Positions 4,481 to 58,522 of a DNA stretch of 64,000 nt are shown here, in pieces. How positions within the stretch are numbered: position 1 is the first letter of the stretch; each line of letters begins with the position of its first letter. This DNA is from Patescibacteria group bacterium (lineage in GTDB: Bacteria > Patescibacteriota > Patescibacteriia > GWA2-46-9). The position numbers and the translations under genes are program-made. Below the pieces are notes generated by a model that made no database searches, was not told the DNA's origin, and saw only the letters and a program-made list of their open reading frames with translations. The stretch lies in assembly GCA_041660005.1 (NCBI GenBank), contig JBAZXG010000002.1, positions 24,356-88,355 on the forward strand, written 5' to 3'.

Positions 4481-4490
4481 TAGTGAAGGC

Positions 4491-12814: not shown

Positions 12815-12941
12815 CGCTTCGCTAGAACCCTCGTCGCTACGCTCCTCTCTGACACCTTGCGGTTTCAGTACTTCCACTGCGGGAAACCTCCCGGTTTCCC
12901 GACCCCATCCCCGGGTTCGAGTCCTGCTCCAAATACCAAAA

Positions 12942-12970
12942 AGTCCCCGACGAAATCGTCAGGGACTTTT
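12942..12970. terminator. hairpin AGTCCC..GGGACT plus T-run between family-1 element and tRNA-Leu
   Basis: aagtccccgacgaaatcgtcagggactttttg. Confidence 0.55.
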
Positions 12971-31128: not shown

Positions 31129-31212
31129 AACTATGGCGGACAGCCTCAACTCAAAACGTCTGGCGTAAGCCAGCCGCCGTTGGAACTGTGGCTGGCTCGC
31201 CAGCCGTAACTT
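31129..31212. repeat. family-3 double-hairpin repeat (second copy, see 4396..4480)
   Basis: aactatggcggacagcc...gccgtaactt about 90% identical to the copy beside tRNA-Arg. Confidence 0.7.
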
Positions 31213-31262
31213 GCCACCTCCGCCAAAGTAGCCAAAGGCTACGGCGGCTGGATAGTGAAGGC

Positions 31263-31282
31263 TGGTGGACCTGGGGGGAATC
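31263..31282 (-). repeat. direct copy of the 3' terminal 20 nt of tRNA-Ala (incl. CCA), start of family-1 element (31263..31410)
   Basis: tggtggacctggggggaatc identical to 31460..31479. Confidence 0.8.
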
Positions 31283-31420
31283 CGTCACTCCGCCCGTCGG
31301 CGGAGCTCCTAGAACCTGTCGCTTCGCTCTTTCAAACCCATCGGTTTGAATAATTCCGCCGCAGGGAAACTCCCGTTTCCCCGACCCCTTTCCCGTGTTC
31401 GATTCCCTCGCAGTATATCA

Positions 31421-31460
31421 AAAAATAAATTAGCTGGCATATAGCCAGCAATTTATTTTT
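31421..31460. terminator. bidirectional terminator hairpin GCTGGCatatAGCCAGC flanked by A/T runs
   Basis: aaaaataaattagctggcatatagccagcaatttattttt. Confidence 0.6.
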
Positions 31461-42628: not shown

Positions 42629-43378
42629 CTAATCTTCGACTTTCTTCGTCGAGAGCACAAATCCACTATCTTCACGAGTTTGATACCCTAGTTTTTCGGT
42701 ACTCGCTACTAATCGGCCGAGGTCTGTAGGATCTTCGGGTACCAACCGAGAGAATATCAGCGAACAAGCATTATCTTTGGCAACGCGCTCGGCGATCAAT
42801 AGTAACTGTTTGCCTGCTCCTTGTCCTTGCAAAGGAGGCGCCACGTATCTATCGGCGATATACAAATACTTTTTTCTTGACCCGTCTTTCAAGACCAAGT
42901 TGAAAATTTTGAGATTTATGAAACAGTGATGATTCTCACTGCCAATATTCACGAGGTGTGCGATGGACTTTTCATAATCAATAGTTGTAGCACTTATGGC
43001 GTTATCTATAGATATAGCATCGGAATAGTTACTAATTTCATTGGCTCTTGCTTGAAGAGCCAGATTCTTACCACTAAGACGTAATCTGTATTCTTCTTGA
43101 ATAAACGGTTTTGTTTTACCGCTATCGCCAATCAATCGCCGATCTCCTAGTCCTCTAAGTGCTTCCTGCAGCAATTGACGATATCTATTTTTTAGTGGAC
43201 CTGGCTCAACCTCTGCTACTTTGGCTTCGAGAAGTTCAATTAATTTTGTTCCTTCACCCTCGTTTAAATTTTCGAGTACCGACCTTTCTGGTCTCTCCGG
43301 ATTTTCTAAATTTTCGTCAAACCATACTTCTGGCGACGACCATTCTCTTTCAAGTCTATTTCTTTCCATTTCAGACAT
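42629..43378 (-). CDS. GNAT family N-acetyltransferase with N-terminal extension of unknown function
   Basis: C-terminal LQGQGAGKQLL (Q/RxxGxG/A acetyl-CoA motif). Confidence 0.55.
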   Translation of the reverse strand: MSEMERNRLEREWSSPEVWFDENLENPERPERSVLENLNEGEGTKLIELLEAKVAEVEPGPLKNRYRQLLQEALRGLGDRRLIGDSGKTKPFIQEEYRLRLSGKNLALQARANEISNYSDAISIDNAISATTIDYEKSIAHLVNIGSENHHCFINLKIFNLVLKDGSRKKYLYIADRYVAPPLQGQGAGKQLLLIAERVAKDNACSLIFSRLVPEDPTDLGRLVASTEKLGYQTREDSGFVLSTKKVED

Positions 43379-43515
43379 ACATCTTGAATGTTTTCCTTTA
43401 AACTATATTTTCATGAGGGCAAATGGGGCGCTCGATAAAAAACATGGAATTCCTTTTAGGAACTAACTGACTTTTCGGTGGTCACGACTACGTCTTGACC
43501 TATTTTATTGATGTC

Positions 43516-43702
43516 GGAGAGGGAGGGATGCTTCGCTTGTGGAACCCGTCGCTACGCTCTTTCAAACCCAGTTGCTTGGCGCGACACTTACTGATCTTTG
43601 ATTTTGCTGTTGATGTCAGTTTGAATAATTCCGCCACGGGAAACTCCCGTTTCCCAGCCTGTCCGCCTTCGGCGGAACCCCTTCCCGGGGTTCGAATCCC
43701 TA
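43516..43702 (-). repeat. family-1 element (copy A) beginning with a 14 nt copy of the tRNA-Ser 3' end (43516..43529); marks the left border of the island
   Basis: ggagagggagggat matches 58195..58208 of tRNA-Ser; body shares cgctctttcaaaccca..gtttgaataattccgccRcgggaaactcccgtttccc..ggttcgaatccct with the Ala and Leu loci; contains a 50 nt insertion in the P1 loop. Confidence 0.7.
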
Positions 43703-43926
43703 CCAACTATTCTAAGTGGTCTGTGCATTACCCTACAAGAGAGGAGGATTCGCCTACAAGTCGCCTCGCCTTCCGGCTTGGCGCTCGCAGGCCGCCCCTC
43801 GCGGTCTTGCTCGCCCAATTGCGTCGCAAGACATCGCTGCGGTCTTCGAATCCCTCACGCGAGCAAAGCAGTTTGCTCGCTCCTCTCCTCGGCGTTTTTA
43901 TCTTTGATATTTTAAGGAAACTCCTC

Positions 43927-44150
43927 GGAGAGGGAGGGATTTCCGCGTTCCTCGTCGCCAGCATAGCGACTCGTCGCTCTGTCCGGGGCAGCGCTGAAAG
44001 CTGCGCCCGCTCACTTTCATCGGCGCTCGCTTCATTCGCTTTGTCTTCCGCCAAAACTCATGGCTCGCTGCTGCCCGTTCGAATCCCTCTCCATCTTACC
44101 AAAAATGAGCTGTGCCGCCCACGCACACGTGGGCACCACAGCTCATTCGG
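43927..44150 (-). repeat. family-2 element (copy B) beginning with a second 14 nt copy of the tRNA-Ser 3' end (43927..43940), followed by a long hairpin
   Basis: body shares ctctgtccggggcagcgctg...catcggcg...ctgctgcccgttcgaatccct with the element next to tRNA-Lys; 11 bp stem hairpin aatgagctgtg/cacagctcatt at about 44103..44149. Confidence 0.7.
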
Positions 44151-44412
44151 TGTGTCGCGGTCTAGAACCGCCCCATCGCTAGTATTGTAAGGGGTTTCAA
44201 GGGGTTTGGCGATTCAGCGTTTTTAACCGTCTCGGTCGGGGTCTGCTTGAGAAGAGCGAAGCTGAATGCCAAAAAATGCCAAATATTTTCACCTGCCATA
44301 TTATATACAAATAGCGTACTCCTGCTCAGGATACGCCTATTACTGTTATTAAATGCGGATTAGCACCCTCCTCTCTCATTGAGCGCACCACAGACTTTTG
44401 GCATTTGACGAA

Positions 44413-44892
44413 TCAGATCACTCGGCACTCCATTAGGTGACGACAGAGCGCTTCTTTGCTCACTAAGTATTTTTTTGCCAAAAATTCAAGATCGGGATTT
44501 CGTGAGAAGTCTCCTCTAATAAACGCGAGCGGTATCAGGAGCTCGGCTCCAAATTGATAGGCTTCCCGTTCTGCATTACTGTCAGGGTTTTGCCCACAGA
44601 CGTGCCCCATAAGGAAGTGTCCAATCTCGTGAGCAATCGTGAGTCGCCGCCGTACCCAGGCCGGCGTTGGGTTGAAGCCAATCGTCGGCTGACCATCGAT
44701 CATGAGAAGTGCACCATCAACGGTTTCAAACTCAACGCGCATGATATCAAGGCCACGCTGTGCCTTGAGGTGATTAATGACCTTCCACAGCGAGACCGGA
44801 ATTTCATTCACCCCGGAATCTTTAAAGAGCTTTCTGGCGAGTTTCCTCGCCCCACCTACATTCGGACCAAGCTGTACGTCATCATTTTCCAC
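44413..44892 (-). CDS. ImmA/IrrE family metallo-endopeptidase
   Basis: HEIGHFLMGH (HEXXH) motif, 159 aa, downstream of and overlapping XRE gene. Confidence 0.75.
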   Translation of the reverse strand: MENDDVQLGPNVGGARKLARKLFKDSGVNEIPVSLWKVINHLKAQRGLDIMRVEFETVDGALLMIDGQPTIGFNPTPAWVRRRLTIAHEIGHFLMGHVCGQNPDSNAEREAYQFGAELLIPLAFIRGDFSRNPDLEFLAKKYLVSKEALCRHLMECRVI

Positions 44893-45211
44893 GGCGTTTT
44901 TTAGCTAGCTCGATGAAGCGTAGGAGAGCTTCCTTGTCTTTGGCCGTCAGGTCCTTATCAGCCCTGAGAGCAACTTTGATATCCACGGGGCGACTCTCTT
45001 GCCCAAGGAAGTAGGCAATGTCTCGATGCAACGCTTTAGCAGCTTTGTGTAGGTCTTCGGATCTGAGTTTGCGTTCTCCCGCCTCAATAAGCGAAATGGC
45101 TGTAGCTGACTCATAGTCCAAGGCCTTTGCTAATTGCGCCTGAGACAGTCCGGCCGCTTCACGCGCGGCCCGCAAACGAGCCCCAATTTGAACATTCACC
45201 TCATCTTTCAT
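44882..45211 (-). CDS. XRE family HTH transcriptional regulator (ImmR-like)
   Basis: LRAAREAAGLSQAQLAKAL HTH. Confidence 0.75.
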   Translation of the reverse strand: MKDEVNVQIGARLRAAREAAGLSQAQLAKALDYESATAISLIEAGERKLRSEDLHKAAKALHRDIAYFLGQESRPVDIKVALRADKDLTAKDKEALLRFIELAKKRRGK

Positions 45212-45328
45212 ATTGATATTCTAAATCAATCAGAATGATTTGACAAGGAATTTGCCACTTTGCTAAACTAGATATATCATTATGTTTATATGGATTAGAC
45301 AGCCCTTACCCTACCTAACAACTCCCTT

Positions 45329-46591
45329 ATGAAAATTGAACATGTCAACGTAGGCGATCTTAAACCCTCAGTCTACAATCCCAGAAAGTGGGATGAGAAA
45401 ATTATCGCGGATATGACCGAGAGCATCAAGCGGTTCGGTCTGTGCGATCCCCTGATTGTGAATGGTGCCCCCGACAGAAAGAATATCGTAATTGGTGGCC
45501 ATCTGCGCCTGAAGGTTGCGACCAGCCTCGGATTCACCGAGGTGCCAGTCGTTTATCTGAACATTCCAGAGATTGAGCGTGAGCAGGAACTCAACCTTCG
45601 TCTCAATAAAAATCTCGGTAATTGGGACGACGAGCTTCTAAAGGCGTTCGACATGAACCTTCTGCTTGATGTCGGATTCACCCCCGACGAACTGAACTTC
45701 CACTTCGATGACGTCCTCGACGTGAGCGACGACGGATTCAACGTCAAGGAGGAACTTGCCAAAATCACAACGCCGGAGAGTAGGCCGGGCGACCTCTACG
45801 AACTTGGACAACATCGACTGCTCTGTGGCGACGCGCTCGATCTCAATAATATCACAAAGCTAATGGGCAACGAGAAAGCGCATATGATCTTCTGCGATCC
45901 GCCGTACAACATCGGTCTTGACTACAGGAATGGCATCGGCACAGCTGGAAAGTACACCACGGACAAGCTCGTAAACGATAATAAAAGCATAAAAGATTAC
46001 GAGCAGTTTATCGAACAATCCTTACAAAACGCCTTGGCCGCAAGTCGTGACGACGTCCATGTCTTCTACTGGTGCGATGAAAAAAATGTCTGGCTTTTGC
46101 AACAACTCTACCAGAAGCACGGCATCACGAACCGGCGGCTGTGCCTCTGGGTGAAAAACAATTTCGATCCTACACCGCAGGTTGCCTTTAACAAGGTTAT
46201 TGAACCATGCGTCTATGGCACCCGCGGCAAACCCGCACTTAACTCTAGCATTAAGAACCTGTCGGAAATCATGAACCAAGATGTGAACTCTATTGGTATG
46301 TACGACGACCTCATGAGCATCGTCCAGCTCTGGCTCGTGAAGCGCGACAACACCGCCGACTATGAGCACCCCACTCAAAAGCCAATCACTCTAAATGAGA
46401 AGCCGATGAAGCGCTGCAGTGCACCTGGAGAAATCGTACTCGACTTCTTCGGCGGAAGCGGATCGACACTCATTGCTGCCGAGCAGTTGAAACGCCGCGC
46501 TTTCCTCGTTGAGCTCGATCCCATATTTTGCGATCTCATTATTCGACGCTATGAACACTTCACCGGCAACCACGCCAAAAGAATCCAATAA
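45329..46591 (+). CDS. ParB-like nuclease domain fused to beta-class DNA methyltransferase (N6-adenine or N4-cytosine)
   Basis: N-terminal ParB/Srx fold (IVIGGHLRLKVA); motif IV DPPYNIG then motif I FFGGSGSTLIAAEQLKRRAFLVE at C-terminus (IV before I = beta class). Confidence 0.8.
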   Translation: MKIEHVNVGDLKPSVYNPRKWDEKIIADMTESIKRFGLCDPLIVNGAPDRKNIVIGGHLRLKVATSLGFTEVPVVYLNIPEIEREQELNLRLNKNLGNWDDELLKAFDMNLLLDVGFTPDELNFHFDDVLDVSDDGFNVKEELAKITTPESRPGDLYELGQHRLLCGDALDLNNITKLMGNEKAHMIFCDPPYNIGLDYRNGIGTAGKYTTDKLVNDNKSIKDYEQFIEQSLQNALAASRDDVHVFYWCDEKNVWLLQQLYQKHGITNRRLCLWVKNNFDPTPQVAFNKVIEPCVYGTRGKPALNSSIKNLSEIMNQDVNSIGMYDDLMSIVQLWLVKRDNTADYEHPTQKPITLNEKPMKRCSAPGEIVLDFFGGSGSTLIAAEQLKRRAFLVELDPIFCDLIIRRYEHFTGNHAKRIQ

Positions 46592-47333
46592 TCCCTCCGA
46601 CGGCCTATGGCGGCTCGGCAGTCACCGCCTTCTTCGCGGAGACGCCACAAAGAAGGCGGATGTGGACAGGCTCATCAACGGCGACAAAGTGACGCTGCTT
46701 TTAACCGATCCTCCGTACGGTGTTGGGTACGTTGAAGGCAAGCAAGAATTCTTGAAAACAATTCACCGAGGAAACAAATCAAAAAAATTTACTGCCATCC
46801 AAGGAGACGGTGTGGGGGATGACTACTACGACTTCTCACGAAAATGGCTGGAAACGGTTCGGCCTCACTTCAAGGACAAAAATGCATTTTATATTTTTAA
46901 CGGAGACGCGAAGCTCAGAGAGTTCCTGAACGCCCTGCACGACACGGGATACACAAAGTCGGCACTCCTCATCTGGCTGAAGAACCATCTCGTCGTCGGC
47001 CGAAAAGATTTTCACCCGCAGCACGAGCTCATCGCCTACGGCTGGTACGGCAGACACGCGTTTTTCGGCAACAAGGATAGGACGACACTCTTCTACCCCA
47101 AACCGAGCAGCAGCAAGCTCCACCCCACCATGAAGCCACCCGCACTTCTGCGACGCCTCATCTATCACAGCACCAAGCCGGGAGATATCGTCCTGGATTT
47201 ATTTGGTGGTTCCGGATCGACTTTGATCGCCTGCGAGCAGCTAGGCAGACGATGCTTCATGATGGAATGCGACACCTCGTACTGCGCCACCATCGTCGAA
47301 CGATGGCAGAAACTCACCAAGGGAAAAGCATAA
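46509..47333 (+). CDS. beta-class DNA methyltransferase (second, stand-alone; start probably internal Met)
   Basis: motif IV LLTDPPYGVGY, motif I LDLFGGSGSTLIACEQLGRRCFMMEC; overlaps upstream MTase in another frame. Confidence 0.8.
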   Translation: MSSIPYFAISLFDAMNTSPATTPKESNNPSDGLWRLGSHRLLRGDATKKADVDRLINGDKVTLLLTDPPYGVGYVEGKQEFLKTIHRGNKSKKFTAIQGDGVGDDYYDFSRKWLETVRPHFKDKNAFYIFNGDAKLREFLNALHDTGYTKSALLIWLKNHLVVGRKDFHPQHELIAYGWYGRHAFFGNKDRTTLFYPKPSSSKLHPTMKPPALLRRLIYHSTKPGDIVLDLFGGSGSTLIACEQLGRRCFMMECDTSYCATIVERWQKLTKGKA

Positions 47334-47749
47334 CCCTGTCCTCATGTATCACGTCTATGGAAAGTACGGAGGCCGAACATTCGAAAACCATATCAGTGTA
47401 CAAGAAACAAGAATTCGAGGCCTACGTGCTGTGGCGATCGATGCCGTCAATCCTGCGTGGCCAGCCGAGGCACGTCATCGAAAAACTTGGCATCGACGAC
47501 GAGATTGCTATGTCGCTCCTCGACATCAAGAACCAGACCGAGTTCGCCAAGCGGTATGGCATCAAGGATCTCGGGACCCTGACAGACTGGAACAAACGAA
47601 TCGATGAGATGGGCGGACTCATGCGCTACATCAACGCCTGGGCCAAGCGCCTGACTCCGAACGTTATCTCAGCCCTGTACCGCGAGGCCACGAAGAGCGG
47701 ACGGGCCGCCGAGGTCAAAGCCTGGATGGAAATTATTGAAGGGATGTAA
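47252..47749 (+). CDS. putative HTH DNA-binding protein (terminase-small-subunit/Nu1-like helix-turn-helix); probable start at 47360
   Basis: EFAKRYGIKDLGTLTDWNKR resembles wHTH of phage small terminase/Nu1; weak. Confidence 0.3.
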   Translation: MLHDGMRHLVLRHHRRTMAETHQGKSITLSSCITSMESTEAEHSKTISVYKKQEFEAYVLWRSMPSILRGQPRHVIEKLGIDDEIAMSLLDIKNQTEFAKRYGIKDLGTLTDWNKRIDEMGGLMRYINAWAKRLTPNVISALYREATKSGRAAEVKAWMEIIEGM

Positions 47750-47754
47750 ACAAT

Positions 47755-47973
47755 ATGGAGATTGAAGAAAAAAATCTACGGAAAACACTCAGCATAGAAG
47801 AAGCGGCGGGCATTTTGTCTGACACGCTCCGCGATGTGGCCGAGCGCAAGACTACAGTGCGGCGGGCGCTGGTAATGTCGCGCCTGGCGTTGGCACTCTC
47901 CAGAGTACTCGAAATTGCCGACCTCAAAGCTCGCGTCGAGTTTTTAGAGCAAATGTTAAAGAAACGACGCTAA
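47755..47973 (+). CDS. small coiled-coil hypothetical protein
   Basis: 72 aa ORF tightly packed between neighbours. Confidence 0.3.
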   Translation: MEIEEKNLRKTLSIEEAAGILSDTLRDVAERKTTVRRALVMSRLALALSRVLEIADLKARVEFLEQMLKKRR

Positions 47974-47974
47974 T

Positions 47975-49816
47975 ATGGCCAACCTCTCCACCGCTCTGCG
48001 GACCGGGAACCTGACCGCACGCGAACGGTTCCTGCTCCTCATCCAAAACGACATCCAGCGCATGAAGACGGGAAAAGATATCCTGACGACGGCCGACAAA
48101 GCCGCGCTCGAGAATTGGCAAGCTAAAAATAACGTCGAAGCGTCTGAGTGGAACCGCCTGAACGAGGGGTGGAAACACACTGGACGCATGGACATTGAAG
48201 TTGAGTTCGCCTACCAGGAAGCGAACGCCGCACATCTCGCCAAGCTGCCAATCATCATTGAGCTCCTCACCTACCGGGCTGATCGAGAGATGAGCCGCTG
48301 TATCAATGTCCTGAAGCGATTGAAAAAAGTAAACCCAAAAGAAGCGAGCGTGATCATCGCCAAGCAGAAAGCCGCCAAACTCAAAGAAGGCATAGACGTC
48401 GAGTACGCGGTTTACCGGTTGGCCTTCGAGCGCCTCACTCCGGCAGAACAACAGCAAATGAAAGAGCTCTACGGCGACGTTGAAACTGACCATCAGTACC
48501 TCGACCAAGAGGAGGTTATCGCCAATCTGTACGGCAACCAAACCGAGCTCACCCCCGAGGCAAAAGATAAGCTCGCCACGCTGGTAGCCGAACGGAGCTA
48601 TAACGCATTTGCCAAAGAACATCAACTCTTCCATTACTTCGCCTGCATCCCGCTTGCTGAGGTGGCCCGATACTTCATCGCGCTAAAAAATATCATCCTG
48701 CCAAGCGAATCATCGCCTGCAGACGGAAAGGAAAAGGACCCATTCGCCGATCTCAATCAGTGCAACGAGTTGGCTGAAGCATTACAAACGTACGCGACGA
48801 CGCACCACACCACGGTCGAGAAGCTGCTCACGGAAGCGTGCCGCGTCTGGCTCGATGACGGCCTTCTTGAAACTTACACGCCGCTCGTCACGAGCAACAA
48901 TGCCGCGCTTTTTGAGCGGTGGCTCGCGGCCAAAATTGAAGCCAAGACGGTTATAACTCAACACGTTAGTGCTGGTGAACTCATGCTGCGCCATCGTACG
49001 GAGGAAGAAACAAGAAAGGAAAAGCTCTTGAGCAAAGACAGCTACGACCGTGAGTTAGCCACGGCACAAGCAGTACTTGAGGAGATCGGACGGGAGGCGA
49101 CAATCAAAGGAGAGCTTGATGAAAAATCAGCCTTCGAGACGTTCGCCGATCAGGTCATTACTGGCGAGAGTCTCTACGCATTCCCGGGCGACTACGAATT
49201 TGTGAAAAGCTTCAAGGAGCGAGCCGACATATACGACCCCAACCTCGGCATTGTCTACGCGGACGATGATCCAAACCACGCAGGCGAGCACTTGGACCAG
49301 GAACTCCTCATCTGCGACATAACCGACAGCGGCGACGCGAGCGTCTTTAGCCGCTACGGCATGGCGATATCGCTACTCGCAAACATCTTCGATAAAAAAA
49401 TGTTTTTTGAGGAGGTTGCCGAGGACGGAAAACTATTCCTTCACTTCAAGGATTCGCAGATTGAGGAGGCGTTCCGGGCAAGACAACAAAACCTCGTCGA
49501 TGGCTACGCCAAACTCCTCGCCTATCAAGCGGTGTTTAGCAAAGTGGCCGCCATCTACGAGGCCGACCTTGCCTACCACGTCACGGAACGGCTGACGGGG
49601 TTACGCGAAAATATTACCCAGCACAACGAGGCAGTTCAGCAAGCGACGAACCTCGGCGAACGGCTGCACCGAAAAGCAAAGTACGACTTCTTCCGGAGAC
49701 GTGACCGGCTATACTTGAAAGAGGATCTTGTTATAAATATCGATACGATCAAGCCTGACCAAGCAACCATGAAAGAGCACGAAGCGAAGTTGAAAAGGAT
49801 TTTTGGGAACTTCTAA
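47975..49816 (+). CDS. large hypothetical alpha-helical protein (island cargo)
   Basis: 613 aa, no P-loop or known motif recognised. Confidence 0.5.
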   Translation: MANLSTALRTGNLTARERFLLLIQNDIQRMKTGKDILTTADKAALENWQAKNNVEASEWNRLNEGWKHTGRMDIEVEFAYQEANAAHLAKLPIIIELLTYRADREMSRCINVLKRLKKVNPKEASVIIAKQKAAKLKEGIDVEYAVYRLAFERLTPAEQQQMKELYGDVETDHQYLDQEEVIANLYGNQTELTPEAKDKLATLVAERSYNAFAKEHQLFHYFACIPLAEVARYFIALKNIILPSESSPADGKEKDPFADLNQCNELAEALQTYATTHHTTVEKLLTEACRVWLDDGLLETYTPLVTSNNAALFERWLAAKIEAKTVITQHVSAGELMLRHRTEEETRKEKLLSKDSYDRELATAQAVLEEIGREATIKGELDEKSAFETFADQVITGESLYAFPGDYEFVKSFKERADIYDPNLGIVYADDDPNHAGEHLDQELLICDITDSGDASVFSRYGMAISLLANIFDKKMFFEEVAEDGKLFLHFKDSQIEEAFRARQQNLVDGYAKLLAYQAVFSKVAAIYEADLAYHVTERLTGLRENITQHNEAVQQATNLGERLHRKAKYDFFRRRDRLYLKEDLVINIDTIKPDQATMKEHEAKLKRIFGNF

Positions 49817-50029
49817 CTCATTAGTCTACCCGGACCACCTCGAGACCGGACCCAAATTGGTCAACGCCGATAAGGTTTTTGAAGCCTATTTATGATTATT
49901 GAAACAACGTACCCTAAGCACCCTGAAATATAATCTCCCAAACATTAATACCCACATAAGGTGTACGGAGAAAATAGACCACAGAAACGAAGTGTATTCC
50001 GTCCTCCACTTTCCATATTTCAGAACTTT

Positions 50030-51116
<1,087 letters not shown>

Positions 51117-51122
<6 letters not shown>

Positions 51123-51485
51123 ACATCCCCTATAACTAAAGTGCAGCAAGAAATACCGATTGTGCAAAAACTCTACGATCTCTACAAAACCTTCTACGGC
51201 TTCGCCGTGCTTTTTCCGAAGAAAGATAAGTACACACTCGGCGCAAAGTGTGAACAGTACATAATCAACACACTGGAATTGATACTGGCAGCAAGTGCAG
51301 TTACTCCGGCAGAGAAGCTTGGTCTACTACGTCAAGCAAACGTAAAGTTCGATACGCTTAAGGTATTTCTTCGATTATCCCGTGAGATTGGAGCAATCGA
51401 CGCGAAAAAATATCTTGTCCTCCAGAGAGAAATTCAAGAAATTGGTCGCATGCTTGGCGGCTGGCAACGGTCGCTCAGTGCATAA
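51117..51485 (+). CDS. avd: DGR accessory variability determinant Avd (four-helix-bundle protein)
   Basis: 122 aa; KLYDLYKTFYGFAVLFPKKDKYTLG...EIGRMLGGWQRS resembles Bordetella phage bAvd (..EVGRILGSWIAR) and the four-helix-bundle family; start ATG overlaps RT start in palindrome ATGCAT. Confidence 0.75.
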
Positions 51486-51544
51486 TCAACATCGGGGACC
51501 TGTAAGAACAGAATCCCCGAGCCAACTGCTATCGTAGACACAAT

Positions 51545-51663
51545 CCGAGGAAGGACACTCCACCAGAGTAGTTGTCGTTCGCATTCGCAAGATTCGTCCT
51601 GTTGTCGAACTCGAGCTTATCGTCGTTCGGGTTCAGGTAGAGCGAGTACTCAGCGGACTGCCA
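51545..51663 (-). repeat. DGR template repeat (TR)
   Basis: 119 nt about 89% identical to 52085..52203; 12 of 13 differences are at TR adenines (coding strand). Confidence 0.85.
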
Positions 51664-51965
51664 GAATATACCATTCCCCACCGATATGCACCGGCCCTCG
51701 GCCAGAGTTTCCTCTAGCTCCGAGCCTGAATTTTATTCGGTTCATTAGAGAACCCTAGAAAATGGTACGTAGTGTCTACGTGCTCTGCATACGCTCTGGC
51801 AATCAAGTATTTCCTTACCTGACAACTACCAGACTCTGATACATTGATGAGCATGAAGGATTTCGGCGGCCGTGATTAGATGAAGCCAACCACGGTACAT
51901 GAGCCTAATCTCAAAAGCAGTGTAGCATCAGTTCTCGTTTGTTGAAAAATTTTGAAAAAGGAAAA

Positions 51966-51990
51966 GCGGCATGACTGGAAATCATGCCGC
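51966..51990 (-). terminator. terminator hairpin for the DGR target gene (GCGGCATGA/TCATGCCGC), T-run on minus strand
   Basis: 9 bp stem, followed on minus strand by ttttcctttttcaaaattttt. Confidence 0.55.
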
Positions 51991-52080
51991 TGTCCGTAGG
52001 AGGGATCCGGAAGAAAACCGGAAGACCAAAAACCGAAATCCTTGGTCCAAGGTTCAAACTTCCGAAACCCGAAGTCCACA

Positions 52081-52983
52081 CTACCCGAGGAAGGACACCC
52101 CACCAGAGGAGTCGTCGCACGCATGCGCAAGAGCCGTCCTGTTGTCGAACTCGAGCTCCTCGTCGTGCGGGAGCAGGTAGAGCGAGTACTCAGCGGACTG
52201 CCACTGGTAGGCGGAGAGGTCGATCACCGGGGTGTTGTTGTCCCGGCAGATGACCTCTGGCCACATGATGGCTGAGAGGATGGCGTTGAAGCCGTTGAGG
52301 ATGAACCCCTCCGGCAACGTCGCCATCTGCTCACGCTGGGCGTGCACCGAGAATCCCTGCGTTGCACAAGGCAGCTCGATCGTGGCGATCGGACCTTCCT
52401 TGGCGCGAACGAGGAGAAGATCGAGCCGACTCTCCGGCACGACCGTCACTTGCCCTTCGAGCTGACCCCGACGGTGGTTGGTAAAACCACGACCAGGGAA
52501 CTCGGCCTTGTACGCACGCTCGAGCGCCGAGAGAAGAAACTCGAGCATCTGGCCGTGGTCGTGGACAACCATCTGCGGAACGATGATTGGCAGGTGCACA
52601 CCCATCCCGACGTTCACCACCGAGGAATCGTCGAGGATGACCATGAGACGGCCGACCTCGTCCTCGAACCAAGCCGCGTCGGGCAACACGATGTTGCCTT
52701 CGAAGGCGTGATCCATGCGCTCGCGACGAGCTGCGTAGTCAATGACCTCCGGCTGGAGCAGATGGTACGCGCGATTGGCGTCGCAGACCTTGGCCTTGAT
52801 GCCACGAGGTGGAATACGCCGACCGTGACGATCGAAGAACATCGAGATGACCTCTTCGATCGTTACCTTGGCACCGGCCAAGATTGCGTTCACGGCTCCG
52901 AGCCCGTCGCCGCCGTAGACGCATCCCAGCAGATCGATGAGCTTCTCGTTCTGATTCCCTGTCAAAGATCCGTACTTTGCCAT
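52081..52983 (-). CDS. DGR variable (target) protein; VR occupies the last about 40 codons
   Basis: 300 aa, GC-rich; C-terminus ...QSAEYSLYLLPHDEELEFDNRTALAHACDDSSGGVSFLG aligned to TR-encoded ...QSAEYSLYLNPNDDKLEFDNRTNLANANDNYSGGVSFLG (Asn AAC/AAT codons diversified). Confidence 0.8.
   Translation of the reverse strand: MAKYGSLTGNQNEKLIDLLGCVYGGDGLGAVNAILAGAKVTIEEVISMFFDRHGRRIPPRGIKAKVCDANRAYHLLQPEVIDYAARRERMDHAFEGNIVLPDAAWFEDEVGRLMVILDDSSVVNVGMGVHLPIIVPQMVVHDHGQMLEFLLSALERAYKAEFPGRGFTNHRRGQLEGQVTVVPESRLDLLLVRAKEGPIATIELPCATQGFSVHAQREQMATLPEGFILNGFNAILSAIMWPEVICRDNNTPVIDLSAYQWQSAEYSLYLLPHDEELEFDNRTALAHACDDSSGGVSFLG
52085..52203 (-). repeat. DGR variable repeat (VR) at the 3' end of the target gene
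   Basis: see TR; adenine-specific substitution pattern. Confidence 0.85.
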
Positions 52984-53402
52984 TGCTGGCCTCCGTTATC
53001 AGGCATCATGTGCCCGATGTCTTTAGCCAATTCCCTTGGCCGTTGGGGTCTTTTCCTCTACAGGATCAATCTAGAAATACTAGGGAAAAGACATTGCAAT
53101 GTAGCAGAAATGACAGGAAAAGTCAATGACTTTCGGGTGAATATTTAAATGGTTGATTCAATACAATCTGCTTGCACATATCACAATAAATAAAGGCATC
53201 AATAACTCCTAAAGTATAACCACCAAAAATCAGCCGGATGTAAAACATCAATACCCAGGCTTTCGCCTGGGTATTGATCCTAATGTGTATTCTGTGGGAA
53301 CGATGCTTCTCGATGCTCGTTCTTAACGTGATTGAAAATCCGGTGCCGTTTATTGGGTTCGTATAACCTATCCCACGCTAAGTCGGACAAATGCAGCAAC
53401 AC

Positions 53403-53867
53403 TTACCGCTCAAGAATTTGTTTCTTCTTGGCCTGAAATTCTACTTCCGTTAAGACACCCTTATCTCGAAGATCAGCATATTTCGCCAGCTCATCAACGC
53501 CACTAACCGCTGAACCTCCTCCTCGAATCTGGGCTATTCTTGCTTCGATAAGCTCTCTGACTTTTGCAGAGCGTTCATTGTTGTTATTGGTGATATGGAA
53601 GTTAATACTATTTTCGTCAGTGGCGGACTGAAAAAGACCGCTCTTTGCCTCTGAACCACCAACCAAGGTTAGCTGGAGATAGCCGGCAGTCATACCTGCT
53701 TTTTTGAGTTGCACGGCGACAATGGAGCTATAGGGAATTGTTTTTTCGCCTCGCAGCATCATACCGCCAAGGAGGAAACCCTTTACCCCTCGCTTTATAA
53801 CGACGCCAACATCGGTGAGGATAAGCGTTCCGTTATAGCCGCGAAATTCTTCTATTGATTCGTTCAT
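53403..53867 (-). CDS. DUF4429 (PH-like) domain protein with C-terminal SHOCT domain
   Basis: C-terminal LAKYADLRDKGVLTEVEFQAKKKQIL SHOCT motif. Confidence 0.55.
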   Translation of the reverse strand: MNESIEEFRGYNGTLILTDVGVVIKRGVKGFLLGGMMLRGEKTIPYSSIVAVQLKKAGMTAGYLQLTLVGGSEAKSGLFQSATDENSINFHITNNNNERSAKVRELIEARIAQIRGGGSAVSGVDELAKYADLRDKGVLTEVEFQAKKKQILER

Positions 53868-53878
53868 AAAAGAGTGTG

Positions 53879-54895
53879 TTATTTCTCCCAGGTTGTGCCG
53901 TCGGTAAAATGAACATGGTATGGCTCAACCTCGATCTTCGACGTGGTGTCGTGACCAAAGAGACTCCACGCATCCGAACCTGTTTTGCTGGGAGCAATAA
54001 GAGAACCTTGGCTAAGACCATTGAAGACGTTATCTCCCAGAAAGCTGGCGGGCTCCCCAAAACTGTTAAACATCCTGATATGCAGCTTGTATGCGTCGAT
54101 GGTTTTGTCTGACACATTCTTAATCGTCACATTCGCTTGAGGCATACCAATGATGTCTTTGGTAACACTGCTTTTCACAATCTCGAGAGGAATTGGTTCT
54201 TGTGCGATTGTTGCGGCTGATGGCTTAGACGAAACTACTGGCGTTGTTGTCGCCGTAGATGAATCTAATTTATTTGTGCTAGTTGATGAAGCAGCGGCTA
54301 CAATCACCAGAACAACCAAGACCGCGACCGTGATTGCAGTCTTATGCCGCGTTATGTTTTCCTCCCACTTACTTAAGTGGGGTTGTGCCAGTGGTTCTCC
54401 TTCCATACGATGCGTGTATCGAGAAGCAAGGAGGTGCATAATAATACCGCCGGACAACCCAACAACAAACCCTAGTCCAACCGCTAATGTCCCGCCTATC
54501 GCCGTACCAATAGCTGCGCCAGCTTGCGCTGCCCCGCTCGTGTTCCTCACCGCCGCCGCGCCGACATGAAACATTATAGCGAGTGCAGAGATGGGCAGAA
54601 GAAAGAAGCCAATCTCTGTGGCCCGAAACAAATCCTTCAGTACTTTATTCTTGTTCGTATCCGACCACACATGCAGAATTAGCAGAGCCCAAAAAATTAT
54701 AAACCCGAGACCCATGGCTCGGTTTCCAGACATCCACGCCCAATTTTGAGTAAATACAGCGGCAGGAAGGAGAGTGGCCAATATCTTCGTTGGCAAGAAT
54801 CGATTCTTCGATTGAGGAGTGTGTTGCTCCATAAAAATAAAGAATAAAAAAATAAGCACCTCGGGTATGACGAGACGCTTTGGGTATATACACAA
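53879..54895 (-). CDS. membrane protein with 5-6 TM helices and C-terminal extracytoplasmic domain, hypothetical
   Basis: 338 aa. Confidence 0.45.
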   Translation of the reverse strand: MCIYPKRLVIPEVLIFLFFIFMEQHTPQSKNRFLPTKILATLLPAAVFTQNWAWMSGNRAMGLGFIIFWALLILHVWSDTNKNKVLKDLFRATEIGFFLLPISALAIMFHVGAAAVRNTSGAAQAGAAIGTAIGGTLAVGLGFVVGLSGGIIMHLLASRYTHRMEGEPLAQPHLSKWEENITRHKTAITVAVLVVLVIVAAASSTSTNKLDSSTATTTPVVSSKPSAATIAQEPIPLEIVKSSVTKDIIGMPQANVTIKNVSDKTIDAYKLHIRMFNSFGEPASFLGDNVFNGLSQGSLIAPSKTGSDAWSLFGHDTTSKIEVEPYHVHFTDGTTWEK

Positions 54896-55085
54896 AGCCC
54901 CCCGCCAGCGATAGCCTTACGGCTACCCATACCCGTTTCCAGGTATGACCGGTAAGGGTGCTCTGACGAGGAGCCCTTTATTCCTTACCGGTTTTCGGCC
55001 ATGCCCAGAGCGAACTCTGAGTTTAGGCCATACTCAAATTGTGCTCACATGGTAGCAGGGAAACCCCTATAAATAAAGGGTCTTT

Positions 55086-56540
55086 ATGGGGACTTACCTA
55101 CAAGTTACCTACAGCTCGTTTAGGGACTTTTTGCGGATTCCAGTGATTCTAGCCGCTCTGGACTCCCTAGAGGGGTTGCGTCATCAATGTGGCTATATGA
55201 ACCACGGTAATACAACGGGGCCGGACGGAGCGGACGCCCCAACCAAGGAACAACCGCTCCCTATTAACGTGCGGTACTGCCTGTACGCAAGGAAAAGTAC
55301 CGAATCGGAGGAACGCCAGATCCTCTCCATTGATTCGCAGATTAAAGAGATGCTGGAATTGGCTGAGCGGGAGGGGTTGGAGGTAGCCGAGATAAGGCGC
55401 GAGAGCCACTCGGCTAAGAGTTCTGGTGCGAGAAAGGTGTTCAACGAAATCCTCGTTGACATTAGAGGGGGCCGCTTCAATGGACTTCTAACCTGGGCTC
55501 CAGATAGGCTTGCGCGTAATGCGGGTGACCTAGGGTCGTTAGTTGACCTTATTGACCAGAAAACGCTTATTGAAATACGCACGTTCAGCCAACGGTTCAC
55601 GAACAACCCGAATGAGAAATTCCTCCTCATGATTCTCGGCAGCCAGGCAAAGCTCGAGAACGATAACCGTGGCATTAATGTCAAGCGCGGTATGAAGACC
55701 CGCTGCGAAATGGGACTACGGCCGAACGTCGCACCGACCGGATACTTGAATGAGAAACGGACGGATAAAAAGTGCCACGCTATCGTTGACCCCGAACGTG
55801 GGCCCATCATCAAACAAATGTTTGAGAAAGTAGCGAACGAACACTGGTCAGGACGGAAGCTCTACCACTGGTTGAAGTTCGAGTTGAACTTTAAGACCAA
55901 AGGAAATAAAAACTTGTCGCTCTCCAATATTTACATCATCATCAATAATCCCTTCTACTACGGTGTCTTCGAATTCCCGCGAGGCAGCGGTAACTGGTAT
56001 ACCGGAATCCATACGCCACTAGTCGCGAAGGAGCTCTACGACCAAGCCCATACCCAGTTAAAGCGTGACCGCATTGTCCGAGCTGAGATTAAAGAATTCG
56101 CCTTCACGAAGCTCCTAGCCTGTGGCGATTGCGGGTCTGGAATCTCGGCTGACGAGAAGTACAAGCATCTCAAAGATGGCACCATGGCACGGTATGTGTA
56201 CTACGGCTGCACGCGAGCAAGAAACCTGCACTGCAAAGGTGGATACATCCGCGAGGAGGAACTGATCAATCAAATGATTGCCATCATTGATCAGCTCGAC
56301 ATCAACGAGATTGGCATGCGGTACAAGTTTGACGAAGAGATGGCAAGGCTCGCCAAGTTCCAAAAGAACTTCTACGGCGCAGCTGGCGGCACCGCACCTA
56401 AACTTGAGAACGTGGACTTGAAGGGCTACGCCAAATACTTACTGCGCGAGGGCAGCGTCATTGAAAAACGTGAACTCATGGCCTGCATCAAAAGCAAGCT
56501 CGTGCTGACGCGGAAAGTGTTGACGCTGCAAACACAGTAA
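55086..56540 (+). CDS. large serine recombinase/integrase (start probably at internal Met about 55197)
   Basis: resolvase catalytic domain YARKSTESEERQILSIDSQ, recombinase domain, zinc ribbon CGDCGS...YYGCTRARNLHCKGG, C-terminal coiled coil. Confidence 0.8.
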   Translation: MGTYLQVTYSSFRDFLRIPVILAALDSLEGLRHQCGYMNHGNTTGPDGADAPTKEQPLPINVRYCLYARKSTESEERQILSIDSQIKEMLELAEREGLEVAEIRRESHSAKSSGARKVFNEILVDIRGGRFNGLLTWAPDRLARNAGDLGSLVDLIDQKTLIEIRTFSQRFTNNPNEKFLLMILGSQAKLENDNRGINVKRGMKTRCEMGLRPNVAPTGYLNEKRTDKKCHAIVDPERGPIIKQMFEKVANEHWSGRKLYHWLKFELNFKTKGNKNLSLSNIYIIINNPFYYGVFEFPRGSGNWYTGIHTPLVAKELYDQAHTQLKRDRIVRAEIKEFAFTKLLACGDCGSGISADEKYKHLKDGTMARYVYYGCTRARNLHCKGGYIREEELINQMIAIIDQLDINEIGMRYKFDEEMARLAKFQKNFYGAAGGTAPKLENVDLKGYAKYLLREGSVIEKRELMACIKSKLVLTRKVLTLQTQ

Positions 56541-56573
56541 GACCACCTTCGTCAGCCAGACTGTCTATTGATA

Positions 56574-58019
56574 TTATCCCCAAATTGAATTGATAACGTC
56601 TGTACCGAGAAAATCTGCTAATTGCCCCTCTGGTTTTTTATCTCCAATACACTTAGCTACCCGTTGGGTCCAGGGAACATTTTTCGAGCTGAGTATTTGT
56701 GATAATTGCAAAATTACATCTTTAATATCAGCATTTTTTCTGTCCCAGGAATCACATTGATCCAATTGAGTCTTTTTCTCTCCATAATTTTGGCTTTCTT
56801 CTTTAACTTTTGTCTTCGCCGCTTCCCAATTCTCAAAACCGAGCGACGTCAAGACTTCATCGGATAGAAAAAGATTCTCGCTTTCGCGACATTCTAGTTT
56901 GACATACTTTATATTTGTCTGTGGATTGTTCGCGTCAGCAACCGGAAGGGTTTGATCACCATCAAGTAGCGCAAAGCCAACGGCTTTGGTTTGGTCTGTC
57001 CTTAGGCTGGCAAATATTTTTTCCAGTGTTTTTTGATACCGCTTAACTTCGTCCGCCCCACTACAAGGAATAACCGCCAGCTTCACATTGTTATATCTTG
57101 GCACTTGACTCCAAATTTTATTGTCATCATCTCCCTCTACCAATAATAACGGCGCACTGAACAGGGGCCCCATGAGAGCATGCCCGCCGAGACACGTTGA
57201 GAGCTCCTGCAAAATTTTGTCGAACTGTACCGCTTTCTGTTCGCTGACAGAGTTATTGAGATAGATGACACTTGTCCTCTCACCGCCATGATAGCCGAGT
57301 GCCGACAGAAGAGTGGTACTATGAGAGGCGATAATCATTTGCACCTTATATTTACTCAAAAGTTGTACCAAAAAATGGCCGAGGTGCTGTTGTAGATCGG
57401 GATGTAAGTGTGTGTCTGGTTCGTCAATCAGAAGAACTCGTTCGCTCTGATTATCCAACTCCCATATCGCGCAAATCGTCAACAAATCCAATGCGAGAGT
57501 CAGTATTTCTGCTTCGCCACTGCTTAATGTATTGACGCTTGAAACGCGATCATCGCCGTGAATCCGCCTGAATTCATAAGGAGGGTTTTCTCCTGTAATG
57601 GAGAACTGAAAGTCAGGAAGTAGAACCTGTAAAAAATTTTCAATATCCCCAAGATCGACTGAGCTGGCAGTCGCTCGTCCGGCAACATTTCCAATTTTAA
57701 TTAATAAGGCTTGTATCCGCGAGACTGCTTCCTGACGGTAAGTAGACGACAAATTTTGCTGTCGACGGTTTGCTCTACCGGGGGCCGTTAGTTCTTCCTG
57801 CGTTATTCCAACTTCGTGCGTGATGTCTCCAGCTCTTTCGGGGGAAGTATAGTGATAGACGTTCTGATTACTATTTCGTAAAGTACGCAACAACTGACTC
57901 TTGCCAGAACCGTTTTTCCCAAACAAAATTGTTATCTCATTTAAGTCCTTGAGTTCCCACTGATTTCCGCCAAGATAGTCAGGTCTTATTATATTCAATT
58001 CTTGAAAATATTTTGCCAT
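56574..58019 (-). CDS. OLD-family ABC-type ATPase fused to TOPRIM/DUF4435-like nuclease domain (PARIS/AriAB- or OLD-like defence candidate)
   Basis: Walker A GKNGSGKSQ, LLIDEPDTHLHPDL (DEP..HLHP hallmark), H-loop ASHS; C-terminal LLLVEGDDDNKIW ... GFALLDGD TOPRIM-like acidic motifs. Confidence 0.65.
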   Translation of the reverse strand: MAKYFQELNIIRPDYLGGNQWELKDLNEITILFGKNGSGKSQLLRTLRNSNQNVYHYTSPERAGDITHEVGITQEELTAPGRANRRQQNLSSTYRQEAVSRIQALLIKIGNVAGRATASSVDLGDIENFLQVLLPDFQFSITGENPPYEFRRIHGDDRVSSVNTLSSGEAEILTLALDLLTICAIWELDNQSERVLLIDEPDTHLHPDLQQHLGHFLVQLLSKYKVQMIIASHSTTLLSALGYHGGERTSVIYLNNSVSEQKAVQFDKILQELSTCLGGHALMGPLFSAPLLLVEGDDDNKIWSQVPRYNNVKLAVIPCSGADEVKRYQKTLEKIFASLRTDQTKAVGFALLDGDQTLPVADANNPQTNIKYVKLECRESENLFLSDEVLTSLGFENWEAAKTKVKEESQNYGEKKTQLDQCDSWDRKNADIKDVILQLSQILSSKNVPWTQRVAKCIGDKKPEGQLADFLGTDVINSIWG

Positions 58020-58189
58020 ATATAAATTTAAGAACAGGTCTATCTTAGCTCAAATCTCACAATAAACAAAAAAGACCGGGTGACCGGTCGTTTTTGTTTT
58101 GGTATGCCAATAACATGCAGTAGCGTGGGGGAACCGTCTCGGTCGCGCTGACCTATCGACTGACTCGGTCCCTCGATACTAAATGTTGT

Positions 58190-58279
58190 TGGCGGAGAGG
58201 GAGGGATTCGAACCCTCGAGGCCCTTGCGGGCCTACCGCTTTTCGAGAGCGGCACCTTCAACCACTCGGCCACCTCTCC
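58190..58279 (-). tRNA. tRNA-Ser (anticodon CGA), class II
   Basis: manual fold: GGAGAGG acceptor, GCCGAGTGGTTGAAGG D-arm, anticodon loop CT-CGA-AA, long variable arm GGCCCGCAAGGGCC, TTCGAAT, discriminator G, CCA. Confidence 0.85.
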
Positions 58280-58377
58280 ATATTTCTCGGCAAAGCCTCG
58301 GTCAAAAAATTGAGGCCTCTGGTTGCCGGGGCGGTCTTTTACCGCCCGTTTAATCCTGCGCCACTCGGATTAAACCC

Positions 58378-58394
58378 ACTCGGCCACCTCTCCA
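58378..58394 (-). repeat. 17 nt direct copy of the tRNA-Ser 5' end (GGAGAGGTGGCCGAGT..) about 100 bp upstream of the gene
   Basis: actcggccacctctcca identical to 58264..58280. Confidence 0.7.
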
Positions 58395-58522
58395 TAGATT
58401 GGCTATTTTGTTTTGCTCACCTTTTTTTATCCGTCCGGGTAGCGCTTTTTCAACTACCTCCAAACAATAAAGTATTCGCACGCTACCACGCTCTTCTATA
58501 GTCGACAAGAGCGATGCGCTGT

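Follow-up and report, generated by a model that had tools for sequence, protein, structure and literature searches.

How an island that carries a serine recombinase came to adjoin a tRNA gene, and where exactly it begins and ends, is the question raised by a 64,000-nt stretch of contig JBAZXG010000002.1 from a Patescibacteria group bacterium (GCA_041660005.1). The whole stretch is called the window, and all positions are given in its numbering. A preliminary description of the window regarded two 14-nt copies of the 3' end of tRNA-Ser(CGA), at 43516 and 43927, as attachment (att) sites of the island and pointed to a mismatch: direct repeats of this kind suggest a tyrosine integrase, whereas the recombinase present is of the serine type. 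The present analysis arrives at different borders. The locus is, with a probability of about 0.8, an integrative island of ~14.04 kb (~44148-58192) that owes its place at the 3' terminus of tRNA-Ser(CGA) to a large serine recombinase (LSR) encoded on the island, and the tRNA-end repeats belong to three separate mini-elements. Gene calls rest on Pfam, PHROGs, PADLOC and NCBIfam, and those of RNAs on ARAGORN and Rfam. Loci of relatives are labelled in the style L001-L201 (for instance L044 and L062).

The LSR has the domain order Resolvase, Recombinase and Zn_ribbon_recom. Its catalytic domain, PF00239, is matched at aa 66-210 with 73.3 bits (cutoff 23.3), the catalytic-serine motif YARKST (YARKSTESEERQ) is present, and PF07508 (42.5 bits) and PF13408 (33.9 bits) are both over their cutoffs. 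The protein also matches the integrase family phrog_95 (2e-55), and its best NCBIfam match is CcrB. Relatives were collected by a scan of genome contigs, which gave at least 568, and a scan of viral contigs, which gave 33. The viral-contig relatives are 42-65% identical to the LSR of the window, and a minus-strand tRNA lies directly to the right of the plus-strand LSR gene in at least 12 of the 33, in the same geometry as in the window. The best 80 of the at least 568 genome-contig relatives have identities of 60-72% and come nearly all from metagenome-assembled genomes of Patescibacteria. A minus-strand tRNA-Ser, of any isoacceptor, is the first tRNA on the right-hand side in 41 of these 80 loci; in the remaining ones it is a tRNA for Arg, Lys, Gln, Trp, Val or Asp, or the contig end is reached first. 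These loci show the association of this LSR clade with tRNA-Ser. Among the individual loci, a tRNA-Ser with the anticodon ACT adjoins the recombinase island of L008 (15977-16064), a tRNA 3' fragment with another tRNA behind it adjoins that of L017 (6460-6556), and one viral contig, of which L013 and L008 are parts, holds two tandem recombinase elements with attP-like internal junctions (L013 ~6057-6100 and 7294-7385).

The right border of the island is marked by an element-side sequence, the P arm, which has the form sGGTC-N3-8-CCGATAAnAAATTGTCC, is common to the LSR loci and adjoins TGGCGGAGAG (TGGCGG, the CCA/discriminator end of the tRNA). At the right junction of the window, CGGTCcctCGATACTAAATGTTGT is followed immediately by TGGCGGAGAG. 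The GGTC motif is found 22-24 nt from the discriminator base regardless of the tRNA. An LSR half-site is of just this length, which places the middle of the site at the 3' terminus of the tRNA and not in the T-loop. A hidden Markov model (HMM) of the P arm, built without the window, has a single match in the window, at 58167-58203 (E = 6.7e-6). To the left of this canonical P arm, at 58132-58169, there is a second P-arm-like piece, CCGTCTCGGTCGCG, which is similar to the arm subtype GGTCGCG..CCGTCTCAC seen in L044, L045, L047 and L048 and may be the remnant of an earlier or tandem element.

For the left border, a profile was seeded with a junction of L013 and with the sequences behind the mini-elements of L112 and L062. 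This profile has plus-strand matches to the left of the LSR gene in a dozen further loci, and left junctions were found altogether in ~15 islands (L112, L062, L118, L068, L067, L078, L110, L048, L100, L087, L079, L054, L042 and L043 among them). Their order is constant: the host flank, which is often a terminator, is followed by (T)(G)GCGG and by the P' arm with a pseudo-T-arm hairpin (for example CTCGGGTTAAGTACCC), and ~20 nt beyond this hairpin stands yATAAGGGTATTCTAGC. The tRNA side shares only (T)(G)GCGG with these left junctions, and it is for this reason that the island is placed at ~44148-58192. Related islands with both ends in view measure 3.7-15.3 kb. Two loci, L121 and L013, have the P' arm directly after a P arm, as expected of an attP-like or tandem junction.

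The left junction of the window reads ...cacagctcatt, then CGG, then TGTGTCGCGGTCTAGAACCGCC. It begins at 44148, and 207 nt separate this point from the place, further left, where the second tRNA-end repeat stops. This left end belongs to the subgroup of L048, L042 and L043, the carriers of the closest LSRs. The sequences CGGTCTAGAACC (12 nt) and CGGTCGGGGTCTG (13 nt) are identical in the left end of L048, and the layout is the same in L042 and L043; the score of these short exact matches was reached by 1 of 2000 shuffles. The repeat unit to the left of the junction, Ser-2, is complete down to a hairpin that ends at 44147, as in a similar unit at tRNA-Lys, where the hairpin adjoins the tRNA. 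Two further sequences recur on the two sides. GAACC stands at a distance of 19-23 nt from the junction both in the P' arm and in the tRNA, and the 14-nt sequence AACCGTCTCGGTCG is found close to both island ends, at 44225 and 58132.

The junctions fit short att sites without a long direct repeat, of which the crossover itself is not visible in the sequence. The attP of the LSR would have the form P-TGGCGG-P', and its attB would consist of the DNA just downstream of the tRNA (the terminator flank), GGCGG and the acceptor/T-arm DNA of tRNA-Ser. Strand exchange would take place within (T)GGCGG, the complement of CCGCCA, which would hold the crossover dinucleotide. With the exchange so placed, the tRNA would be left intact, and only 3-6 bp are common to both junctions. 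The predicted attP is ..CGATACTAAATGTTGT-TGGCGG-TGTGTCGCGGTCTAGAACC.. and the predicted attB is ..CACCACAGCTCATT-GGCGG-AGAGGGAGGGATTCGAACC..; in reads, the attP junction should appear as ...CTCGATACTAAATGTTGT[TGG]CGGTGTGTCGCGGTCTAGAACC... and the empty attB as ...GTGGGCACCACAGCTCATT[..]GGCGGAGAGGGAGGGATTCGAACC... The three mini-elements would already have been present downstream of the tRNA when the island arrived. An LSR that makes its own short-core junctions leaves no long direct repeat, and the mismatch between tyrosine-type repeats and a serine recombinase consequently disappears.

The repeats themselves are real. ARAGORN and Rfam recovered tRNA-Ser(CGA), and an exact search found three plus-strand copies of the 14-mer GGAGAGGGAGGGAT in the window, at 43516, 43927 and 58194, a number reached by 0 of 100 dinucleotide shuffles. 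The core truly shared by the copies is 15-16 nt long, CGGAGAGGGAGGGAT[T]. When 43400-44400 was compared with the rest of the window, pieces of it were seen to recur just downstream of tRNA-Ala and tRNA-Lys. Units of ~170-220 nt, free of open reading frames (ORFs), are located on the 3' side of tRNA-Ala, tRNA-Lys and tRNA-Leu, where no island is present. Each unit has the same order: X, a direct copy of the 3' end of its own tRNA that ends in the T-loop; a structured module; X', an inverted copy of the T-loop/T-stem; and a hairpin adjoining the tRNA. Three such ORF-less units, called Ser-1, Ser-1.5 and Ser-2, stand in tandem before the island, and the two repeats of the preliminary description are the X of Ser-1 and the X of Ser-2. 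The type-A HMM matches Ser-1 at 43616-43686 (E = 1.3e-11). The X' of Ser-1.5 has the form TTCGAATCCCTC-[hairpin]-TCCTCTCC (~43849-43893), and the type-C HMM matches this unit at 43738-43897 with E = 3.3e-21, a value that is partly circular because Ser-1.5 is one of the four seeds, together with L008, L112 and L062. The module of Ser-2 is 73% identical over 162 nt to the unit at tRNA-Lys. A search of 43300-44500 against Rfam at permissive E-values gave nothing credible. Fragments of further units are found to the left of the Lys unit, at 3507-3566 and ~3880-3941.

The use of the 14-nt copies as island att sites is therefore not borne out, given the same units at Ala, Lys and Leu without an island and the left junction at 44148. 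In a fuller form of that explanation, the island would reach from a 14-16-nt repeat (43516 or 43927) to the T-loop, the crossover would lie in the T-loop, the island would carry a replacement tRNA 3' end, and 43942-44147 would be its own left end. The 16-nt repeat does have the orientation required by this geometry, L112 and L062 also have a tRNA 3'-end copy several kb to the left of the LSR gene, and islands of Dehalococcoides at ssrA, which have a serine recombinase, were reported to have 20-bp repeats and to be inserted in the T-loop (PMC3146451). In L112 and L062, however, P' begins after the whole mini-element and not at the repeat. Most related islands with both ends visible lack any such long repeat, repeat-plus-module units occur not only at the three tRNAs without an island but also beside protein genes, and the P-arm motif, 22-24 nt from the tRNA end, is thus ~40 nt away from the T-loop, a distance that an LSR half-site would not span. 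An island bounded by the repeats is thus unlikely.

The placement of the two kinds of elements relative to each other varies among the loci. In L044 the P arm adjoins an 18-nt copy of the tRNA end, and a type-A unit of ~160 nt stands between the island and the tRNA. The left junction of the island has a type-C unit on its outer side in both L062 and L112. From these placements it follows that the mini-elements and the LSR islands are independent of each other.

Several points weigh against an LSR island with borders at ~44148 and ~58192. When the window is left out of the P' profile, that profile finds no match in it, so that the left border rests on the likeness to L048, L042 and L043, on the short exact matches and on the completeness of Ser-2; 44148 is accordingly less firmly supported than the right border. 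The crossover point cannot be fixed from the sequence alone. Among the checks proposed in the preliminary description, the search for an empty tRNA-Ser site or a circular attP junction of this island found neither: a 37-nt piece of the tRNA-Ser has no exact match in genome or metagenome contigs, and exact-protein look-ups with flank and island genes returned only colinear Logan contigs of one run (SRR18595301) and no alternative junction. No recombination directionality (excision) factor was identified in the island. Finally, the reverse transcriptase (RT) of the diversity-generating retroelement (DGR) on the island, described below, is frameshifted, and the DGR may therefore be inactive.

The same Logan contigs bear on the question of whether the island was joined to the chromosome by misassembly through the repeated tRNA or mini-element sequence. 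They break at 43648, 44043, 50565/50574 and 58216/58256, that is, at the repeats, the RT tract and the tRNA, as such an artefact would have it. Two of these separately assembled contigs, though, each cross one island junction into host-side sequence, L004 at 44148 and L003 at 58190, and both junctions fit the attL and attR patterns of the whole family. An artefact of this kind is hardly credible.

The mini-elements were followed beyond the window in metagenome stretches (L122-L201), which were used to define the type-A core. Metagenome contigs contain 83 exact occurrences of the 25-nt type-A motif TTCCGCC-N2-3-GGGAAACTCCCGTTTCCC, and 81 copies were analysed. A minus-strand tRNA is found 24-95 nt to the right in 40 of the 81 copies, with 14 amino-acid identities, and a copy of the 3' end of that tRNA, with a length of 12-24 nt, stands 50-100 nt to the left in 32 of the 81. 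The X' sequence follows the tRNA at hand: it matches the cognate tRNA at 12.3 of 14 positions on average and non-cognate tRNAs at 9.4, and the share of matches of at least 12/14 is 20 of 26 among the cognate cases and 5.7% among the non-cognate pairs. The relation holds also where the T-loop is unusual. The core measures ~105 nt, from GTCGCTnCGCTCC at its left end to CCCTTTCCC at its right end. Its two hairpins, TTGAAACC/GGTTTCAA and GGGGAAAC/GTTTCCCC, are backed by compensatory changes: 99.1% of the cells are paired, five pairs are changed on both sides, there are no G-U pairs, and none of 500 shuffles reached the score.

Other type-A copies are not at tRNAs. They are located at the 5' ends of ORFs that, as read from their N-termini and not by family search, resemble L11, LepA, EF-G, methionyl-tRNA synthetase (MetRS), RNase HI and a PHP-domain protein. 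The junctions in these protein genes fall at ultra-conserved motifs: between ANP and APP in L11, between AHI and DHGK in the P-loop of LepA/EF-G, in the HIGH-motif region of MetRS and in an RNase HI motif. The orphan N-terminal fragment differs from the live copy mainly by synonymous or conservative changes, and the inverted copy spans the junction. Examples of loci with a type-A core are L149, L187, L157, L179, L194, L191, L164, L182 and L122. No recombinase or transposase was found recurrently beside the core in 80 loci, the family has no Rfam match, and no description of it was found in the literature searched. IS200/IS605-type palindrome-associated transposable elements (PATE), IS110 bridge RNA, homing spacers of CRISPR-associated transposons (CAST) and invertons were considered, and none of them fits the combination of a direct repeat, an inverted copy and no ORF. 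An explanation by introns was rejected as well, the introns in question being located in the anticodon loop.

Tentatively, and with confidence slightly short of even, the mini-elements may be regarded as an undescribed class of ORF-less mobile elements of ~200 bp at ultra-conserved sites of essential genes. Every copy has one and the same topology: an orphan gene end, the core, an inverted target copy of 12-15 nt, a spacer and the restored gene. The inverted copy folded back on the restored end suggests, by analogy, either an attachment site of the single-stranded hairpin type, like those of CTX-phi and integron attC, or an RNA made up of a scaffold and a guide that would direct the choice of target.

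Apart from its ends, the island has the genes expected from the preliminary description, as shown by Pfam, PHROGs, PADLOC and NCBIfam; the positions are collected in Table 1. The ImmA/XRE pair is likely an induction switch. The gene for the fusion of ParB and methyltransferase and that for the second methyltransferase were found by tblastn in 52 and 50 of ~113 LSR loci, respectively, and these two methylases are the conserved backbone of this island family; in the island of the window the ImmA/XRE pair is counted with them. The methylases would protect the DNA of the element. The DGR with its 300-aa target, the DUF4429-SHOCT protein, the ATPase related to OLD and PARIS and the LOOT RNA make up the cargo. 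The ATPase (56574-58019) has a clear AAA_21/AAA_15 domain, and the profiles AriAB (PADLOC, 1.4e-26), ATPase-Toprim and Old reach to about aa 400-450; the TOPRIM domain of the earlier OLD/TOPRIM assignment was not detected by Pfam. The ATPase gene is probably a defence gene.

Table 1. Positions of the island, its junctions and the tRNA-associated units in the window
Feature	Position	Strand	Remarks
tRNA-Ser(CGA)	58190..58279	-	ARAGORN and Rfam; integration target (B' half of predicted attB)
attR	58132..58195	+	P arm AACCGTCTCGGTCG...CGGTCcctCGATACTAAATGTTGT, then core TGGCGG (58190-58195), complement of the CCGCCA 3' end of the tRNA
attL (probable)	44148..44243	+	core CGG (44148-44150), P' arm TGTGTCGCGGTCTAGAACCGCC...TTGTAAGGGG...CGGTCGGGGTCTG
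Large serine recombinase	55086-56540	+	Resolvase, Recombinase and Zn_ribbon_recom domains
Mini-element Ser-1, type A	43515..43747	.	X1 43515-43529; core (hpA/hpB) ~43548-43686; X' ggggttcgaatccctacc ~43686-43705
Mini-element Ser-1.5, type C	43748..43925	.	degenerate tRNA 3'-end copy agagaggaggattcg, ~43748-43762
Mini-element Ser-2, type B	43926..44147	.	X2 of 16 nt, 43926-43941; X' 44079-44095; terminator-like hairpin 44104-44147
Unit at tRNA-Lys, type B	3942-4159		X of 19 nt
Unit at tRNA-Leu, type A	12802-12970		X of 17 nt
Unit at tRNA-Ala, type A	31264-31459		X of 20 nt
ImmA/IrrE (M78) peptidase	44413-44892	-	family match; capP-like match in PADLOC
XRE helix-turn-helix repressor	44882-45211	-	family match
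ParB_N-N6/N4 DNA methyltransferase fusion	45329-46591	+	Pfam/PHROGs/PADLOC
Second N6/N4 methyltransferase	46509-47333	+	Pfam/PHROGs/PADLOC
Genes of 165, 72 and 613 aa	47252..49816	+	no family match
DGR reverse transcriptase, two frames	50030..51122	-	split by a C12(TC)~15 tract at ~50538-50580
bAvd, DGR accessory protein	51141..51485	+	strand opposite to RT, TR and target
DGR template repeat (TR)	51538-51663	-	126 nt, 88% identity to VR
DGR variable repeat (VR)	52078-52203	-	126 nt, 3' end of target gene
DGR target gene, 300 aa	52081-52983	-	VR at 3' end
DUF4429-SHOCT protein	53403-53867	-	family match
Unknown protein, 278-338 aa	53879-54895	-	
LOOT RNA (Rfam RF03000)	54910..55029	-	90.7 bits, gathering threshold 46.4; full-length model coverage
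ABC-type ATPase, OLD / PARIS AriA-AriB / PtuA kind	56574-58019	-	Pfam, PADLOC, NCBIfam

The same gene content allows the region to be considered as the remains of a prophage or phage satellite whose structural genes have been lost. LSR relatives are found on IMG/VR viral contigs, some of them 30-56 kb long, and ImmA/XRE, ParB-methylase and DGR genes are common in temperate phages. A scan of viral contigs with the ParB-methylase yielded too few loci for left ends to be defined. On the other side, Pfam and PHROGs gave no match to capsid, portal, terminase or tail genes in the island, and the related islands with defined ends are only 3.7-15 kb long. The 613-aa protein has no phage-like fold: it gave no match in Pfam, PHROGs, PADLOC, NCBIfam, PDB sequences or viral contigs, and its AlphaFold2 (AF2) model matched generic helical bundles only. 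The few members of its family that have a named source are all labelled as Patescibacteria lineages. The proposals that this protein is a terminase or a primase are unsupported, family and fold searches having given no informative match. A former phage is accordingly very unlikely. An integrative island of ~14 kb that is not a complete prophage agrees with the preliminary description, as does the LSR as its only recombinase; no match to a tyrosine integrase (Phage_integrase) was found in the island ORFs of at least 250 aa.

The DGR announced in the preliminary description is present with its RT, bAvd and TR/VR pair, with two corrections: the RT is in two frames, and Avd is encoded on the opposite strand. 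Along the coding strand, 13 of the 15 differences between TR and VR are at adenines of TR. An RT, an Avd protein, an adenine-specific TR/VR pair and a VR at the 3' end of a target gene, by which a DGR is recognized, are all in place despite the broken RT frame. Relatives of the RT align with aa 7-192 in one frame and with aa 201-351 in another. The site of the tract has 76 nt in the window versus 24 nt in relatives, which lack the tract, and the frame would be restored by a change of -1 or +2 nt. Logan contigs end exactly at the tract. It may reflect a phase-variable DGR, an inactivated DGR or pseudogene, or an assembly problem. The divergent layout of Avd and RT is also found in 8 related LSR loci, and a DGR is shared with 8-9 related loci.

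The LOOT RNA is divergent from the LSR gene and is located 57 nt upstream of it. In other LSR loci it was found in 5 of the 12 scanned first and, with a model made from six copies, in 18 of 100 further ones, which gives ~24 of ~113 loci in total (for example L007, L008, L010, L012, L015, L057, L074, L079 and L078). Its usual position is either 100-330 nt upstream of the LSR gene, antisense, or right after the LSR stop codon, sense. LOOT RNA thus travels with this LSR clade. Searches of the literature on its function gave nothing, and the original publication of these motifs does not discuss LOOT in its main text.

The island is flanked by housekeeping genes. Those on its left encode a Liv-type transporter, NUDIX, nitroreductase and GNAT proteins, and those on its right a Wzy-like ligase and a polysaccharide flippase. 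A strong departure of several cargo genes in G+C content had been described; it holds for the kilobase of the DGR target, with 0.60, and this is the sole clear departure from a backbone that ranges over 0.40-0.57.

The surroundings of the tRNA genes contain other repeats. The 5' end of the tRNA-Ser, CCACTCGGCCACCTCTCCATA, is part of an exact 21-nt direct repeat (58262-58282 and 58376-58396), 114 nt upstream of the gene, and the spacer between the two copies is rich in hairpins and holds another CCACTCGG. The arrangement may represent a mirror-image unit by which the 5' end of the tRNA is restored. Repeated intergenic blocks near tRNAs were seen at 4320-4490, 12700-12760 and 31150-31262. One block, ctcaaaacgtctggcgtaagccagccgccgttg.aact.tggctggctcgccagccgtaac...agtgaaggc, stands before the real 3' end of a tRNA-Arg and before an orphan tRNA-Ala copy, and gtagaactttgttcgctgacgcacggaataatttttgaacgacctc is another. 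The sequence gagggaaagtccgcc at ~4375 is similar to the P4 sequence of RNase P and has no match in Rfam.

The significance of the locus is twofold. More than 560 loci define a clade of serine integrases found chiefly in Patescibacteria, whose attachment site is the extreme 3' end of tRNA-Ser and for which attP and attB can be predicted and tested. Serine integrases are the preferred tools for the insertion of large DNA, and a clade that reads a nearly universal tRNA sequence is of practical interest. On this island a DGR, orphan methylases, a probable defence ATPase and an orphan LOOT RNA share one mobile vehicle, in hosts whose genomes are tiny. The mini-elements, if mobile, would represent a new way for selfish DNA to hold the most conserved sites of a genome and yet let the host survive, since they bring a replacement gene end, and they would cause systematic miscalls of island borders from partial tRNA repeats, as in the preliminary description.

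Among known systems, the mini-elements are closest to cis-mobilizable elements (CIME) and T-loop-class tRNA att sites, and to the fold-back sites of CTX-phi and integron attC. CIME are likewise gene-less and enclosed by direct repeats, which in the mini-elements run from the T-loop to the 3' end, and the fold-back of attP1 and attP2 in CTX-phi resembles the inverted copy beside the restored gene end. Unlike CIME, CTX-phi and attC, the mini-elements are ~200 bp long, use one core for at least 14 tRNA species and for protein genes, and have no linked integrase.

The recombinases of phiC31, Bxb1, A118 and CcrAB are, like the LSR of the island, three-domain proteins with a catalytic serine. Their att sites are short, with element-side arms of ~25 bp and no long direct repeats, a pattern that the junctions compared here fit. 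The characterised LSRs of phages and of staphylococcal cassette chromosomes (SCC) integrate into protein-coding genes or rlmH and are not known to do so at the 3' terminus of a tRNA gene; for the clade described here, the sequence that is read appears to be the acceptor/T-arm DNA of tRNA-Ser. Tycheposons, of which 27 of 937 have a large serine recombinase (Hackl et al., bioRxiv 10.1101/2020.12.28.424599), are similar in that cargo elements are stacked downstream of tRNAs with partial tRNA copies between or beside them. They differ in that their recombinases are mostly of the tyrosine type and the partial tRNAs are their own att sites, whereas the copies in the window belong to ORF-less units.

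Besides this minority of tycheposons, a precedent for a serine recombinase at a tRNA-like gene is provided by the ssrA islands of Dehalococcoides (McMurdie et al. 2011, PMC3146451). Both kinds of islands are integrative and non-conjugative, are of similar size, are located at the 3' end of a tRNA-like gene and have a CcrB-like LSR. The likeness of DsiB to the LSR of the window is drawn from its description and from the relation to CcrB, which is the best NCBIfam match here and is named for DsiB there. The ssrA-island module shares with the present island a ParB-domain protein, a methylase and an unknown protein of ~600-700 aa, and tandem arrays and integrase-less neighbours are likewise seen in both. 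The differences are in the target, which is ssrA there and tRNA-Ser here, and in the junctions, with a 20-bp repeat and insertion in the T-loop there versus a core of 3-6 bp at the CCA end here. The ssrA islands have the small serine recombinase DsiA, a RecF-like and a Mom-like gene, whereas the present island has neither a second serine recombinase nor a RecF-like gene; their cargo consists of rdh operons and not of a DGR with defence genes, and the fusion of ParB to the methylase and the Patescibacteria hosts are peculiar to the present case. With these differences, the island is a serine-recombinase island at a tRNA-like gene, of a kind already known from the ssrA islands.

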